Part shown: in pieces, positions 22,959 to 56,374 of the stretch
Layout: each line of letters starts with the position of its first letter
Position numbering within the stretch: position 1 is the first letter of the stretch
Virus record (IMG/VR): IMGVR_UViG_3300029928_000010
Reading direction: 5' to 3' (one strand)
Length of the DNA stretch: 64,000 nucleotides
From: a virus
Program-made: the position numbers and the translations under genes
Notes under the pieces: model-generated
Seen by the model: only the letters and a program-made list of their open reading frames with translations
What the model was told of the DNA's origin: nothing
The model's database searches: none

Positions 22959-23114
22959 TAGGGAAAATATTAAAATGTGGAAGTTGCGACCGCACCTCTT
23001 GGTGAAAAATATAGGAACTCAGAAATGTGTCGGTAGGTGTCGGATTATACGCCGACAGTCGAAGGCTCGGAGTAAGGAAGCAAAGAATATTCATTTAATC
23101 AATAACATACAGGC

Positions 23115-24134
23115 ATGAGACGATACGGCTATCTTTACGACAAGATAATCTCCATGGATAATCTGAGGATTGCGGACATGAATGCTCGCAAGGGAAAGGC
23201 TAAATCTTATGGAGTAAAGCAATTCGACAAGGATAGGGAAGGTAAATTATTCGCCCTGCACCATATGCTAAAGGATAAGGCTTACAAGACATCGAAGTAC
23301 GATATATTCATTATCCATGAACCAAAGGAACGGGTGATTTACCGCCTACCCTATTATCCAGACCGCATCGTTCACCATGCCATTATGAATGTGCTTGAAC
23401 CGATATGGCGCAGCGTGTTTACGTGCAATACCTATAGCTGCATCAAGGGCAGGGGAATACATGGGTGTGCAAAGCGAGTGAAGGAGATAATAAGAAAATA
23501 TGACGGTAAGGAACATCTCTATTGCTTAAAGATAGACATTGTTAAGTATTACCCAAATATCAACCACGATGTGATGAAGGCGATAATAAGGAGGAAGATA
23601 AAGGATGAGGATACATTAGGCTTGTTAGACGAGATAATAGACTCGGCTGATGGGCTTCCGATAGGCAACTATATCAGTCAGTACCTAGCCAACCTCTATC
23701 TCGCATACTTCATGCACTGGGTGAACGAAGGGCTGATGATTGACGCAACGGAATACGCCGATGATATTGTATTTTTCTCTGATAGCAAGGATAGGCTGCG
23801 TGAGGTCTTTGTCAAGATAAAAGAAAAATTGGAGGGAGAGCTTAGACTGACCATCAAGCGCAACTGGCAGATATTCCCGATAGCTACTAATAGGTACACC
23901 AACGATGGAAGGGCATTGGATTATGTTGGTTATCAATTCTTCCGTCAGCAGACGTTGGTACGAAAGAGCATAAAGAAGAGACTCTGCAAGGAAGCCAAGA
24001 AAGCCATCGGCAAGGACGTTAAGGAAAAAGAGCTGAAAATGCGGCTTAGTTCTTGGCTTGGATGGACAGAGCATTGTAACGGACGGCACTTACTCCACAA
24101 GATAGGAATATACGACAACATAAAGACATTATAG
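23115..24134 (+). CDS. DGR reverse transcriptase
   Basis: 339 aa. YADD catalytic motif (ATEYADDIVFF) and the DGR-RT hallmark LPIGNYISQYLANLYL (IGxxxSQ). Lies directly downstream of the TR. Confidence 0.85.
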   Translation: MRRYGYLYDKIISMDNLRIADMNARKGKAKSYGVKQFDKDREGKLFALHHMLKDKAYKTSKYDIFIIHEPKERVIYRLPYYPDRIVHHAIMNVLEPIWRSVFTCNTYSCIKGRGIHGCAKRVKEIIRKYDGKEHLYCLKIDIVKYYPNINHDVMKAIIRRKIKDEDTLGLLDEIIDSADGLPIGNYISQYLANLYLAYFMHWVNEGLMIDATEYADDIVFFSDSKDRLREVFVKIKEKLEGELRLTIKRNWQIFPIATNRYTNDGRALDYVGYQFFRQQTLVRKSIKKRLCKEAKKAIGKDVKEKELKMRLSSWLGWTEHCNGRHLLHKIGIYDNIKTL

Positions 24135-29473: not shown

Positions 29474-29499
29474 CGCTTGCTGATTATCGACTTGGCAGT

Positions 29500-29640
29500 G
29501 ATGCCAGGTCGTCAATCTTGTGTTTCATTTCCATCAATGAAACAGTTTCTTTCATAGGAATGAAACTAAGTTTTTACGCATTGACGCATGATTTACGGAA
29601 AATGCTCTTATCTTTGCGGAATTATTTTAAACGTTAAAAG
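29500..29640 (+). promoter_or_regulatory. Promoter/operator-like region
   Basis: TATCTTTG -7 motif at about 29609-29616, 27 nt before the ATG at 29643. It is preceded by palindromes tgtttcat...atgaaaca and tttcat...atgaaa. Confidence 0.3.
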
Positions 29641-30188: not shown

Positions 30189-30530
30189 ATGAAGAAAGCA
30201 TTGAATTACGAGGTCTTGGGAATGGCTTTAAAATCTTTGAGCGATGCTTGTTTCAAGGCAGCGGAGCAAGAGAGAAACGGAGAACCTGTGACCGCTTGCG
30301 GAATGAGCGACGACGACTTGGATAATCTCTGTGAGCAGATTCCATTTATGCTTAATCCTATGATGAGCACGGAGGAGGTCAAGGAGAAGCTACACGTGTC
30401 GGACGCTACGTTGAACAGAATGGTGAACCGTGGTGATATTCCCAACGGCGAATGCAAGAAACGTGGTCATACGAGGTACTGGAATAAATGGGACATTCTA
30501 CATTTCTTGAAGAAAAAGAGGGGCAAGTGA
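30189..30530 (+). CDS. AlpA/excisionase-type HTH DNA-binding protein
   Basis: 113 aa. HTH segment EVKEKLHVSDATLNRMVNRGDIP. Confidence 0.4.
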   Translation: MKKALNYEVLGMALKSLSDACFKAAEQERNGEPVTACGMSDDDLDNLCEQIPFMLNPMMSTEEVKEKLHVSDATLNRMVNRGDIPNGECKKRGHTRYWNKWDILHFLKKKRGK

Positions 30531-30732
30531 TTGTTCCTCTTTTTTTTGTTTCAAGTTTTACAAACATTGGAAAGAATGACATTACCTCGTATCACCTTAA
30601 ATCTTTGATAATCAACCATTAAAAGAAATCGTGAGCGAGTTATGGCCTATCTCGCACATTCATCGTACCTTTGCATCCGTAGTACTACAATAGTGTTAGA
30701 TAACTTTAAGGATAACTTAAAAAGATTGTTTT

Positions 30733-34633: not shown

Positions 34634-34672
34634 AAAAAGGGGCGACCGTCCGAGAAGGATAGCCGCCCCTAA
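34634..34672. terminator. Bidirectional terminator between the late (plus) and early (minus) operons
   Basis: Stem aggggcg...cgcccct flanked by an A run upstream and AT-rich sequence downstream. The lysis and early operons converge here. Confidence 0.45.
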
Positions 34673-46260: not shown

Positions 46261-47064
46261 TTAGTCTTTTGTTTCTTTTGGCTTATATCCCAGTCTATCA
46301 AGCATCTTTCTAATGTAATCAAGACCTTTTTGATAAACCAAAGTTTTTATGAAGATTCTAATCTCCGAACCGCAGTTTTTCTTGGTCTCTATGGTTCTAA
46401 AATATCCTGCATCTATATACTTTTGATAAGGAAGGTTATTCGGCAACAAGACCTTTTGCTCTCTAAGTATTGCAAACAACTTATTTCGTCCAATTGATAC
46501 GTAATTTAAGGTATTTGCAACAGCCTTCATTTCAATAGCATCTTTACTTTCCGCAACAGAATCAAAGAACTCAACTTTTGGGGCATCAACTATGGCTTTC
46601 GCTTCAAGTTGTTTAATTCGCTCTTCTCTTCTTTTGAGAGTAGCCTGTGCAACAAGTAATGCCCTTGCCATCAAATCTTCTTCGGTTTCATCGTCCCTCA
46701 TTACCATATATCCGCCATCTTGGCGAATGCTTGGCAGTATCTCTGATGTTACCCATCTTTTAAACTCTTTGGCTTGCGGTAATTTACTTCCGAAAATCAG
46801 AGCATAAAGACCAGATTCATTAACGAAAGTCATTTCTACCGTCTGGATTGCATCTGTTCCGTCTGCTTTCTTTCCTGTAACTACCCCTATGCCCTGTTTT
46901 AGGGCATCCCCCTCGTCAACGTGAGCTGACACTGCATTTTGAGGTTTTGCGTACCCTAATGCCTTACAAACATCACTTGCACAGAACAGAGGAGCTTTTT
47001 CCGTTCCTTCAATTCGTATAGTACCGAATAAAGGATTAATTTTCTTCAAATGAATGTCGTTCAT
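46261..47064 (-). CDS. Phage antirepressor (Bro-N plus KilA-C type)
   Basis: 267 aa. N-terminal Bro-N-like FGTIRIEG…PLFCASDVCKALGY. Confidence 0.5.
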   Translation of the reverse strand: MNDIHLKKINPLFGTIRIEGTEKAPLFCASDVCKALGYAKPQNAVSAHVDEGDALKQGIGVVTGKKADGTDAIQTVEMTFVNESGLYALIFGSKLPQAKEFKRWVTSEILPSIRQDGGYMVMRDDETEEDLMARALLVAQATLKRREERIKQLEAKAIVDAPKVEFFDSVAESKDAIEMKAVANTLNYVSIGRNKLFAILREQKVLLPNNLPYQKYIDAGYFRTIETKKNCGSEIRIFIKTLVYQKGLDYIRKMLDRLGYKPKETKD

Positions 47065-47534
47065 AAGCTATCTTTTAGTTTCTTTACTTCTTCCTCATAA
47101 TGCTTGATGAGCATCTGCAATTCAAACAGAGACCATTTCTTTGTTTCAAATCTACGAGATTCTAACAAATCAACTTGCTGTTCTCCGTATTTTTTAACCA
47201 TCCACTTTCTGTACTCTAGCATATTTCCGTCTAAGTACCGATTACAGTACCTACAGCCTATGTGGCAATTCGTTTCCGACCATCGCAAAGCCATACAAGA
47301 CCTTTTTATGTAATGCGCACAGTCAGCTTGCTCGAATGGTTTCACCTTTCCGCAAGTTGGGCATCTAAAATACTCAAAATTATATTCCTTGCTATCACGA
47401 AGACGTATAAATTCCGAGAACACAGAATCAAGTTTGCGAATAAGCGTAGGCTTGCTAAGTCCTGCTCTGGCTGCTTTCTTCTCCCAAGGAGCTTTCTCTT
47501 TCTTATCTTTCTTTGGTTTCTTCTTCCAAAACAT
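47061..47534 (-). CDS. NinG/Rap-like recombination protein
   Basis: 157 aa. FSEFIRLRD…CPTCGK…DCAHYI…C…C pattern typical of the lambda NinG family. Confidence 0.45.
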   Translation of the reverse strand: MFWKKKPKKDKKEKAPWEKKAARAGLSKPTLIRKLDSVFSEFIRLRDSKEYNFEYFRCPTCGKVKPFEQADCAHYIKRSCMALRWSETNCHIGCRYCNRYLDGNMLEYRKWMVKKYGEQQVDLLESRRFETKKWSLFELQMLIKHYEEEVKKLKDSL

Positions 47535-47536
47535 AT

Positions 47537-47731
47537 CTATTCTTCTTTTTGGATTTCACTACTTCGGATTGCCTTCCTTATGCTGTTAATCTTAGAGTTG
47601 AGGATGGAGATCCGTCTATAACATAGCTCGAAGTGCTCTAGTGGACACCAAGGGTTTCTTTCGAGCTGCTTGTATATGTCGTACACCCTTTGCCGATATG
47701 AGGCTAGGGTGGTCTTTGTTAAGTCTATCAT
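47537..47731 (-). CDS. Hypothetical small protein
   Basis: 64 aa. First gene of the leftward early operon. Confidence 0.35.
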   Translation of the reverse strand: MIDLTKTTLASYRQRVYDIYKQLERNPWCPLEHFELCYRRISILNSKINSIRKAIRSSEIQKEE

Positions 47732-47762
47732 ATTGTATAATTGTTTACAGATTTATTTAAAT

Positions 47763-47790
47763 CCTGCCTATCCTCACGGACTGGCAGGGA
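47763..47790. promoter_or_regulatory. Hairpin A: 7-bp stem tcctgcc/ggcagga, 14-nt loop TATCCTCACGGACT
   Basis: Read directly from the sequence. Partner hairpin at 48581-48608 has a different stem but a near-identical loop. Confidence 0.5.
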
Positions 47791-47862
47791 GTTGCTTTTT
47801 CAAATTCAAAATTATGAATTGCTGTGCCGCTGCACATAGCTTCTATGCGTGTAATGAGATAG

Positions 47863-47972
47863 TCCTCGCAGTTGGACTTGAACCAACGACCAAGTTGCAC
47901 GGTTTGATAAGAATGCGTTAAGGATTTACACCTCTGTTACGTGCTTGCTCTAACCAACTGAGCTATGCGAGG
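47863..47972 (-). tRNA. tRNA-like element with a 31-nt insertion in the anticodon region (possible pseudo-tRNA or intron-containing tRNA)
   Basis: Minus-strand acceptor CCTCGCA/TGCGAGG. U8A9. D-arm GCTC-AGTTGGTTA-GAGC. T-arm GTTGG-TTCAAGT-CCAAC. The anticodon stem GCACG/CGTGC encloses 38 nt instead of 7. No CCA is encoded. Confidence 0.35.
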
Positions 47973-48030
47973 AATGTTGAGGGCATCGTGCGCAACCACG
48001 AATTTAAGAGCCATGCTCACCCTCCTTTAT

Positions 48031-48104
48031 CTACAATAGTAGAAATTTTCAGAAAATGCAAAAGTAGTATATCAGTTATCTACTATAGTAGAAATTTTGA
48101 TTAT
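48031..48104. repeat. Two direct copies (about 22/24 identical) of a palindromic CTAC(A/T)ATAGTAG-AAATTTT site; a third copy lies at 43688-43713
   Basis: atctacaatagtagaaattttcag (48031) and atctactatagtagaaattttgat (48081), compared with acctacaatagtaggaatttatttag (43688). Confidence 0.5.
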
Positions 48105-48387
48105 GGCTAAACAATCAACATTCACTCTACTTGCACTCTGCATTTCTGAATATATTGTAAGGACTTAATAACTTCTCTTTTTTCCAATGTGTCAAAGAAC
48201 ACTGCTATTGCTAGCTTAGATTGTTACTGATGCACTATATATAATAAGGTGTAAGGTAAAAGGTGTTGGTAGAATGTTCGCCCACAACATTTCCTTATGA
48301 TTTAGGGTTTCCCCATGGACTTTATCGCAGCTTTTGTCACCCCAACCGAACGAGATATTATAATAACAATTCACCAATAACGAATAG

Positions 48388-48459
48388 TGGGAAGTAGAGG
48401 AGTTGAACCTCTGTAGCTTAGCGAACCGCACAGCATCCTAACCGTTAGATGAACTTCCC
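48388..48459 (-). tRNA. tRNA-like element with aberrant anticodon arm
   Basis: Minus-strand acceptor GGGAAGT/ACTTCCC. T-arm AGAGG-TTCAACT-CCTCT. D-arm ATC-TAACGGTTAG-GAT. The expected 17-nt anticodon arm CTGTGCGGTTCGCTAAG does not pair canonically. Confidence 0.3.
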
Positions 48460-48580
48460 GATAACTCTCCTATCTGTCACAGACGAGAGAGTGATATGAA
48501 TCAACGTAAGCACCGCTGTGCCATTAAATCTATAGAAATACTTATATATTTTACTAACATTCATGTAGTTTCTTTTCAAG

Positions 48581-48608
48581 ACCTCTCCCATCCTCACGGA
48601 CAGGAGAG
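48581..48608. promoter_or_regulatory. Hairpin B: 7-bp stem cctctcc/ggagagg, 14-nt loop CATCCTCACGGACA
   Basis: The loop matches hairpin A at 13 of 14 positions. The stems differ but each pairs with itself (covariation). Lies 60 nt downstream of the Cro-like gene on the minus-strand transcript. Confidence 0.5.
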
Positions 48609-48666
48609 GGATAACGCTTTAATATGAATTTTACCTAAAAGCTAACATATAGCTTTTCACCTTATT

Positions 48667-48870
48667 TTATCTAACTAATTTCTGCTCTTTAACCTTGACA
48701 CCCCCAAAGCGATTGAGGGCTACGTTTCTGATGTCGCCAGCCTTCTTGCTATTGGTTCGGAAGGATAATGCATTGTACACTGCCGCTTGACCACAGCCGA
48801 TAACTGCCATTATTTTAGAAATTTTGTCTCTTTCGACTAAAATTCTTTCTGTTTTTACTATTTTATTCAT
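48667..48870 (-). CDS. Cro-like small HTH regulator
   Basis: 67 aa. HTH-like ISKIMAVIGCGQAAVYNALS. Divergent from the XRE repressor gene. Heads the leftward early operon. Confidence 0.4.
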   Translation of the reverse strand: MNKIVKTERILVERDKISKIMAVIGCGQAAVYNALSFRTNSKKAGDIRNVALNRFGGVKVKEQKLVR

Positions 48871-48879
48871 AACTTTTTA

Positions 48880-49026
48880 TTATATTTGCACACGAAATAA
48901 TATTATCAGATGGTTACGAGAACCATTTACGAGTGCAAAGATACATATTTGTAGGCAAACGCCCAAGTTTGTAGGCATTCTTTTATAATTACTTAGTATA
49001 TTTACACATTTATAAACACTAGCGTT
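48880..49026. promoter_or_regulatory. Lysis/lysogeny switch region: back-to-back promoters and direct-repeat operators
   Basis: Minus-strand -7 TATCTTTG at about 48938-48945 (within cgagtgcaaagata). Plus-strand cAtaTTTG at about 48944-48951 and TATATTTG at about 48884. Direct repeats (a/g)TTTGTAGGCA at 48947-48957 and 48967-48977. Inverted repeat tggtt-acgag-aacca at about 48911-48925. Confidence 0.4.
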
Positions 49027-49419
49027 ATGGAAGGACTAAAGGAACGTATCAATGAGATAAAGGACTATTACAGACTGTCTAACAGAGGGTTTGCTGCTGC
49101 TCTAGGCACAAAACCTGCTGCAACCAACAACTATCTCAACGGAACAAAAGAGCCATCACTAGATTTCGTGGATGCAATTTTGTCTAAGTACGTGGACATT
49201 TCTGCGGAATGGCTCTTGCGTGGCAAAGGAAGTATGTTTTGCGATGACAAGCCAACAGACGAGGAAGTAACTAAAGAATTGGCTGATGCCAAGGTGAAGA
49301 TGCTTGTAAAGGATGGGATCATCAAGGAACTAAAAGATTTGATTCTCGAAAAGAACAGTGGTAAGAAGACGAGCAAGGACGAGATTGTCACACAGAAGTG
49401 GGAAGAAAAGTTCGGATAA
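49027..49419 (+). CDS. XRE-family HTH repressor (CI-like)
   Basis: 130 aa. HTH LSNRGFAAALGTKPAATNNYLNG. ISAEWLLRGKGSM motif common in Bacteroidetes XRE regulators. Confidence 0.5.
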   Translation: MEGLKERINEIKDYYRLSNRGFAAALGTKPAATNNYLNGTKEPSLDFVDAILSKYVDISAEWLLRGKGSMFCDDKPTDEEVTKELADAKVKMLVKDGIIKELKDLILEKNSGKKTSKDEIVTQKWEEKFG

Positions 49420-49440
49420 TACCACTTGTACCAAACAAAA

Positions 49441-49472
49441 AAGGAGGGCACTAGGCTCTCCTTTTTTATTCA
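49441..49472. terminator. Bidirectional rho-independent terminator
   Basis: aaaaaaggagggcactaggctctcc followed by ttttttatt. Ends the repressor gene and the convergent minus-strand operon. Confidence 0.5.
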
Positions 49473-55930: not shown

Positions 55931-55957
55931 CTGACAAAAACGACTAAAGGGTAGCCA

Positions 55958-56374
55958 TCACTGACTACCCTTTTCTTCTTGTTGTTGGTCTCGCTCTCGT
56001 TTCTCCCTTATGGCTTGTCTTATCCACTCGGGTCTCTTGTTGCCCATAGCGTCTAGGAAATCATACATTTCCTCGTTAACGTGGATTACCACTCGGTTTA
56101 CTAGGGCTTCCTTGCCCTTGCCTTTCCATCCTGCTCCCTCTCTGTAACCTCCCCACCCTGGGTGCAGGTTCTTCGCTTGCACCACCTTGCCTTTTCTCGT
56201 AAGGTTAAGGCGGAAGATAAGCTTCTGACCATTGTACACCTCGGCATACTGGGCATCGGGTGTTGTCTGTAGCGCATTTTCGGCTACTGCCTTTATCTGC
56301 TCTTTCTTGTCGCTCAACATTTCCGTCTCGTCCAAGATGCACAAATCATCATATACTACGATTCTCGCTCTCAT
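55958..56374 (-). CDS. Hypothetical protein
   Basis: 138 aa. Confidence 0.35.
   Translation of the reverse strand: MRARIVVYDDLCILDETEMLSDKKEQIKAVAENALQTTPDAQYAEVYNGQKLIFRLNLTRKGKVVQAKNLHPGWGGYREGAGWKGKGKEALVNRVVIHVNEEMYDFLDAMGNKRPEWIRQAIREKRERDQQQEEKGSQ

Follow-up and report, generated by a model that had tools for sequence, protein, structure and literature searches.

Probable terminator- or attenuator-type RNA hairpins with a shared GUGA cap in the early operon of a Bacteroidales-type temperate phage

Introduction

The intrinsic terminators tR1 and tR2 of phage lambda lie inside its early operon and are leaky or overridden. The boxB element of the nut sites, by comparison, is a phage-specific hairpin with a 5-bp stem and a pentaloop, which is paired with boxA and is not followed by a U-tract. 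Among bacteria, the TRIT elements of Mycobacterium, described with the RNIE terminator models, are reportedly a sequence-conserved terminator family. The hairpin top C-GUGA-G is one of the specially stable tetraloops in the bonus list of the Turner nearest-neighbour rules. Finally, conserved loops on covarying stems are characteristic of the guanidine-II (mini-ykkC) riboswitch, in which two hairpins with ACGR loops are located tens of nucleotides apart in the 5' UTR and engage in loop-loop pairing.

The hairpins described here belong to a Bacteroidales-type temperate phage and were studied within a 64-kb window, i.e., the whole stretch of viral DNA that was analysed. Like tR1 and tR2, they comprise a hairpin soon after cro and further ones before nin-like genes, all on the sense strand, with U-tracts in orthologues and with downstream genes that need read-through. 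Unlike tR1 and tR2, these putative terminators carry a sequence-conserved apical module (hereafter, the cap), one copy abuts a tRNA-like gene, the U-tracts in the window are weak, and no antitermination system was found among the early ORFs with Pfam and PHROGs. As at the nut sites of lambda and P22, cro is followed by an RNA hairpin whose loop is of GNRA type and conserved in sequence, whereas the stems of 10-12 bp, the tetraloop, the U-tracts, the lack of boxA and the occurrence of the cap after host genes set the locus apart. Similar to TRIT, intrinsic-terminator hairpins of conserved sequence appear across many genes, but only the apical 12-14 nt are conserved here, the lower stem is free, and the carriers are Bacteroidales and their phages. 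The top of the cap is exactly C-GUGA-G, although stability alone fails to predict its U-A pair, G.U pair and 1x1 mismatch. Guanidine-II elements likewise contain more than one hairpin with a conserved loop and a covarying stem, whereas the copies described here are 90-800 nt apart, have a closed GNRA cap and follow genes.

Results

Two capped hairpins in the leftward early operon

A short intergenic region separates the divergent repressor and cro-like genes of the window, and the early operon extends leftward from the latter. Its relevant features are as follows:

49027-49419, plus strand: HTH repressor gene (Pfam HTH_19/HTH_3), divergent from the cro-like ORF
48667-48870, minus strand: cro-like ORF of 67 aa, which opens the leftward early transcript and whose homologues define the 71 related loci considered below
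48580-48611, minus strand: hairpin B (position class 1, after cro); covariance model 40.1 bits, E 3e-9
47760-47791, minus strand: hairpin A (position class 3, before the 64-aa ORF); covariance model 39.1 bits, E 5e-9
47537-47731, minus strand: 64-aa ORF directly downstream of hairpin A
47061-47534: NinG-like gene, after the 64-aa ORF
46261-47064: antirepressor gene (Bro/KilAC), after the NinG-like gene

A sequence-only reading of this DNA had described two hairpins, one just after the Cro-like gene and one just before the first early gene. Both are present at these places, and the placement is borne out by the ORF coordinates: approximately 55 nt separate the cro-like stop codon from the start of hairpin B, and hairpin A stops approximately 30 nt short of the ATG with which the 64-aa ORF begins. 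Hairpin B has the make-up CCUCUCC-U-GUCC-GUGA-GGAU-G-GGAGAGG, with 12 continuous pairs and the tail UCUUGAAAAG, and hairpin A the make-up CCUGCC-A-GUCC-GUGA-GGAU-A-GGCAGG, with the tail AUUUAAAUAAAU. Several details of that reading need correction. The right arm of hairpin A, given as ggcagga, is actually ggcaggG; the loops, given as identical at 13 of 14 positions, agree at 12, their first and last bases being different; and the 14-nt segment, taken for an open loop, is itself paired in the minus-strand RNA, where it forms a GUCC/GGAU helix (G.U, U-A, C-G, C-G) topped by a GUGA tetraloop. The composite stems comprise 10-12 pairs with this 4-nt loop. The 1x1 position between the cap and the variable stem is paired in B, as U.G, and mismatched in A, as A.A; the lower stem of A consists of six Watson-Crick pairs plus a T.G on the plus strand, equivalent to a C.A mismatch on the minus strand.

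The exact 12-mer common to A and B, GTCCGTGAGGAT, has two occurrences in the window (47770-47781 and 48590-48601, both on the minus strand) and none in 100 dinucleotide-preserving shuffles of it. The fold energy of the sense (minus) RNA is -21.2 kcal/mol for hairpin B, versus -15.4 kcal/mol for the antisense RNA; the respective values for hairpin A are -15.8 and -14.8 kcal/mol. The z-scores of about -5.5 mark both as stable G+C-rich hairpins with a short loop, the sense strand being favoured. In the plus-strand version the wobble pairs turn into A.C mismatches and the loop into UCAC; the conservation of the G.U and U.G pairs therefore points to an RNA structure of the sense strand.

No Rfam family matched the hairpins in a search over 47500-49100 with E-values up to 10. 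The motif as a string, queried on both strands as DNA and as RNA, yielded only unrelated primer matches in the literature and no paper naming it, and keyword searches on Bacteroides terminators and tetraloops returned nothing relevant. BLAST comparison of this region and of three other hairpin contexts with annotated phages gave no useful annotation.

Several other elements were noticed in the window. Downstream of the repressor gene, between its end and a convergent ORF, a 15-pair hairpin at 49434-49470, preceded by A-runs and followed by T-runs, looks like a bidirectional terminator. Two 14-bp palindromes, at 48030-48043 (TCTACAATAGTAGA) and 48079-48092 (TCTACTATAGTAGA), are 49 bp apart; between them, upstream of a tRNA-like gene, lies a Bacteroidetes-type -7 box (TACTTTTG, minus strand), and a similar sequence, tttctactattgtagat, was found in the related locus L462. 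Judging by sequence, this pair of palindromes with the -7 box (48030-48092) may represent an operator-controlled internal promoter. The plus-strand segment 48235-48302 is conserved with the related contigs L076 and L106; in relatives it belongs to an ORF of 57-106 aa (…KGAGRMLDHNISFWF…) antisense to the early transcript, and in the window a stop codon interrupts the reading frame. A small gene that has decayed and a conserved stretch of RNA are the two readings of this segment. Far from the early operon, at 22988-24134 (plus strand), a reverse-transcriptase ORF (23115-24134; Pfam RVT_1) is immediately preceded by an Rfam RT-17 RNA (56 bits); the two probably belong to a retroelement, diversity-generating or of another type, among the structural genes.

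Conservation and covariation among related phages

We retrieved 71 related loci with an alignment of three cro-like proteins. All of them carry one to four copies of the hairpin at matching positions, with two to four copies in 68 loci. The viral contigs L076, L106 and L067 are syntenic with the region and have hairpins with different stems at the same three positions; their inner helices exhibit compensatory changes (GUUC-GUGA-GAAU, GUGC-GUGA-GCAU and CUGC-GUGA-GCAG). A covariance model (R1) produced 196 matches in the 71 loci, all of them in the same orientation as the cro-like gene, and an independent pattern scan of the same loci found 167 sense and 4 antisense occurrences.

The loop is GUGA in 184 of 186 hairpins of the cro family. 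In an alignment of 41 distinct sequences, which was fitted to the model so that the counts lean towards structure, both partners vary in 8 of 11 pairs, and pairing holds in 93.6% of cells, compared with 79.1% in shuffles. Three pairs are nearly invariant across the same rows, namely, the G.U wobble (38/41), the U-A pair (41/41) and the closing C-G pair (40/41). The sequence-only reading had viewed the hairpins as a selected structure on the minus-strand early transcript and had named conservation in related phages as the test. The covarying stems, the exclusive sense orientation and the retention in every cro-family locus uphold the claim.

By contrast, no canonical copies occur in 80 phage loci (611 kb) that share only NinG with the window, so the hairpins are not tied to NinG-type operons generally. 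Within the terminator-like hairpins of these loci, GUGA is among the commoner loops (3/28), alongside GUUA and GUCA.

A third copy and two tRNA-like genes between the hairpins

Hairpins A and B form direct repeats around approximately 790 bp of non-coding DNA that holds tRNA-like genes. A covariance model built from the cap-bearing hairpins and then run on the window revealed a third, degenerate copy in this interval, and two tRNA-like genes were found there that the earlier reading had not mentioned:

48462-48494, minus strand: third, degenerate hairpin copy (class 2); covariance model 18.7 bits, E 0.006
48389-48459, minus strand: tRNA-like RNA 1, with acceptor, D and T arms and an aberrant anticodon arm; weak Rfam match, 21.8 bits
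47863-47972, minus strand: tRNA-like RNA 2, in which about 51 nt replace or extend the anticodon arm; Rfam tRNA, 46 bits

The third copy (ACUCUCU-C-GUCUG-UGA-CAGAU-A-GGAGAGU) is located 2-4 nt upstream of tRNA-like RNA 1, which has a cloverleaf-like fold (z -2.8). The acceptor, D and T arms of tRNA-like RNA 2 are normal, and its replacement of about 51 nt holds the conserved core GUGUAAAUCCUUAAC.CAUUCUUAUCAA. This RNA is kept in L106, L067, L076 and L483, where its acceptor stems covary. ARAGORN called no tRNA in the window, tRNA-like RNA 2 included.

The class 2 slot of relatives contains a GUGC-GUGA-GCAU or GUUC-GUGA-GAAU hairpin, with a tRNA or tRNA-like gene starting 4-5 nt further on; the tRNAs in this slot have anticodon loops of 8 or 6 nt. 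For L462 (2863-2971) and L478 (2867-2976), ARAGORN reported 'tRNA-???' with an anticodon of either 4 nt (gatg) or 2 nt.

Related modules exist elsewhere: combinations of a hairpin and a tRNA-like element are also found in unrelated phages, and a Firmicute has an array of four such units. In the unrelated loci L199, L020/L061, L026 and L028, a GNRA-capped hairpin is followed after 4-7 nt by a minihelix composed of acceptor and T arm, in some cases ending in ACCA. The tandem array of four hairpin-minihelix units lies at 3330-3915 of L235, an Acutalibacteraceae genome. The Rfam matches of the minihelices in such modules (L235, L199 and others) are to the two ends of the tmRNA model.

Sequences downstream of the hairpins

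Read as U-tracts, the tails in the window are UCUUGAAA for hairpin B and AUUUAAAU for hairpin A, with three to four U in the first 8 nt, and a simple terminator scan of the window called neither hairpin. Orthologues have better tails. Most class 3 orthologues of hairpin A (L421, L422 and L430 among them), as well as the class 4 copies located between later genes, are followed by a UUUUU tail, either UUUUUCUU, the one found after most class 3 orthologues, or UUUUUAAAAA, and the next start codon lies 15-30 nt past these tail-bearing copies. A contig that shares the exact stem of hairpin B has the tail UUUUCUUUUGG. Orthologues with UUUUUCUU or UUUUCUUUUGG are classed as terminator-like by the scan; the hairpin A orthologue of L430, for instance, has 11 pairs and the tail TTTTTCTTAA. 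In relatives, the middle (class 2) copy lacks a U-tract throughout, its place being taken by the tRNA or tRNA-like gene.

Of 74 distinct hairpins that bear the exact cap, 40 are followed by an 8-nt stretch with five or more U. A same-strand stop codon is located within 120 nt upstream of 36 of these hairpins (median 60 nt), and 11 are located near a convergent stop codon.

Distribution of the cap outside this phage family

The pattern CCNGTCCGTGAGGATNGG is present at no fewer than 119 viral loci, and among the matches listed its viral carriers include crAss-sized contigs and contigs of 140-157 kb. The canonical cap yielded at least 120 matches, including at least 111 hairpins with five or more further pairs and at least 27 distinct stems. 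It is several-fold commoner than single-change variants of equal or greater stability, for which the counts are complete:

control cap with G-C for G.U: 25 matches, 7 hairpins, 6 distinct stems
control cap with A-U for G.U: 29 matches, 7 hairpins, 7 distinct stems
control cap with GAAA for GUGA: 45 matches, 13 hairpins, 10 distinct stems

This preference for the G.U pair and the GUGA loop over close variants is beyond what stability alone explains.

Matches in bacterial genomes are bimodal: those in high-G+C taxa have unpaired flanks, as chance predicts, and those that form hairpins are mostly from Bacteroidales. On Bacteroidales chromosomes, the cap with a U-tract is located 26-39 nt past the stop codons of rplQ (L17), tsf (EF-Ts), the PPDK gene and argS (ArgRS). 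Hairpin-forming matches outside this order were seen in Microbacterium, Oscillospirales and Verrucomicrobia and may be background, given a database of 596 Gb. Many unrelated hairpins of other gut phages carry the cap, which, with at least 27 different stems in crAss-sized and other phage contigs, is bound to no single phage lineage or protein.

The window also contains hairpins that resemble the capped ones. A related hairpin at 34638-34670, GUCC-GAGAA-GGAU, which the covariance model also detected, has its pentaloop on the plus strand and a U-tract on the minus strand. Terminator-like hairpins with a GUGA loop closed by A-U are located at 30510-30547 (plus), 29488-29511 (plus) and 55946-55973 (minus).

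Discussion

We consider hairpins A and B to be, more likely than not, intrinsic terminators or attenuators, or else stem-loops at RNA 3' ends, within the leftward early operon. Their structure, strand, conservation and covariation, the U-tracts of their orthologues and the recurrence of the cap at the terminators of housekeeping genes in the host are direct observations; termination itself, and its efficiency in this phage, where the U-tracts are degenerate, we infer. Each hairpin combines a free G+C-rich lower stem with a common apical module, which consists of the 1x1 position, the G.U wobble, the U-A pair, a variable pair, the C-G pair and the GUGA tetraloop. Because C-GUGA-G is specially stable, this top would be expected to nucleate folding quickly as the RNA emerges. 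In the proposed scheme, hairpin B would end or attenuate the cro transcript, the middle copy sits just 5' of a tRNA-like gene, and hairpin A would end or attenuate transcripts carrying the second tRNA-like RNA, upstream of the 64-aa ORF, ninG and the antirepressor gene. Three to four hairpins would thereby punctuate the early operon across this phage family. Since the next gene begins 15-30 nt past several of the hairpins, there is no room for a promoter, and termination should therefore be partial or overridden, as expected of attenuators such as lambda tR1 and tR2. This spacing at the same time weighs against the terminator reading, as efficient termination would silence the downstream genes. 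The poor U-tracts of the window, with neither hairpin called by the simple scan, also speak against it, and pure stability leaves the choice of G.U over G-C or A-U, and of GUGA over GAAA, unaccounted for.

The terminator reading fits least well for the class 2 copy, after which comes a tRNA-like gene rather than a U-tract, suggesting a role in processing or stability at least there. The hairpins could indeed serve to protect 3' ends after endonucleolytic cleavage, with RNase P cutting at the tRNA-like genes 2-7 nt further on ('tRNA punctuation'). As the principal explanation this is improbable, although it is a serious partial rival, above all for the middle copy, and is compatible with termination. 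The constant tRNA or tRNA-like gene 4-5 nt past the class 2 hairpin, the recurrence of the hairpin-plus-tRNA-like module in the unrelated L199, L020, L026 and L028 and as an array in L235, and the location of other copies between cistrons where a promoter would not fit are all in its favour; however, most members, including most orthologues of hairpin A, have canonical U-tracts, most follow stop codons, and A and B themselves have no tRNA-like gene after them. A proposal that is somewhat less probable still joins both aspects: the apical module would be more than a stable cap, namely a specific element recognised by a factor of the host or the phage, which would govern termination, read-through or RNA stability at several points along the early operon, and together with the tRNA-like genes it would constitute a punctuation system shaping early transcripts. 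As to what keeps the G.U pair and the mismatch, recognition by a factor is one possibility; another, likewise conjectural, is that they are kept for strand-specific RNA hairpins that make poor DNA palindromes.

The sequence-only reading had compared the hairpins to lambda nut/boxB sites, an analogy that fails for four reasons: the form differs, boxA is missing, there are U-tracts, and terminators of host housekeeping genes bear the same cap. Stems of 10-12 bp with a GUGA tetraloop do not match a 5-bp stem with a GNRA-like pentaloop, and the only boxA-like 8-mer (one mismatch, at 48012) is more than 200 nt from either of them and at chance level. The location after cro fits lambda tR1 better than nutR. 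Nor is the cap restricted to phage operons that use an antiterminator: it also follows rplQ, tsf, PPDK and argS, where a phage-specific antiterminator site would make no sense, and it occurs in unrelated phages. That the cap is bound by an RNA-binding regulator of phage or host origin, such as an N-like antiterminator or a protein that modulates termination at the early-operon hairpins, hence appears quite unlikely, even though its conservation goes beyond pairing (the GUGA loop, the G.U and the U-A) while the stems diverge, it outnumbers its single-change variants several-fold, and three to four copies are arranged along one operon. Besides the differences in form, the U-tracts and the host and unrelated phage occurrences, this regulator-site reading is opposed by the early ORFs, among which no N-like or other RNA-binding protein was matched by Pfam or PHROGs, some of them corresponding to small proteins of unknown function. 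An element acting at the level of DNA, as a boundary for recombination or cassette exchange around a mobile tRNA module or as a cruciform or single-stranded DNA site, is highly improbable. The two direct repeats flanking the non-coding segment with the tRNA-like genes would suit it, but with its G.U pairs the structure is specific to one strand and less stable as DNA, and single copies follow host genes. Moreover, all 71 relatives possess the intervening segment and none has a single hybrid hairpin, on which ground a cassette or recombination site was rejected.

Some further identities were also dismissed. The apex of SRP RNA helix 8 and the sarcin-ricin loop do not agree with an inner helix that covaries as ordinary Watson-Crick pairs, and Rfam gave no match. 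A guanidine-II/mini-ykkC element is contradicted by the GUGA rather than ACGR loop, by the spacing of 90-800 nt and by the same negative Rfam search. For REP- or MITE-type palindromes, the stems differ too much among copies and loci, only the apical 12-14 nt being common.

The hairpins reveal no new kind of regulatory site. If they are terminators or attenuators, as we favour, the early operon has a lambda-like layout with several terminators after cro and before the nin-like genes, which implies a mechanism of read-through or antitermination in Bacteroidales phages, and little is known of how these control transcription. The recurring cap, with its wobble and mismatch, offers a cheap sequence handle for the terminators of Bacteroidales and their phages, and it raises the small question of what, besides stability, is selected in terminator hairpins.
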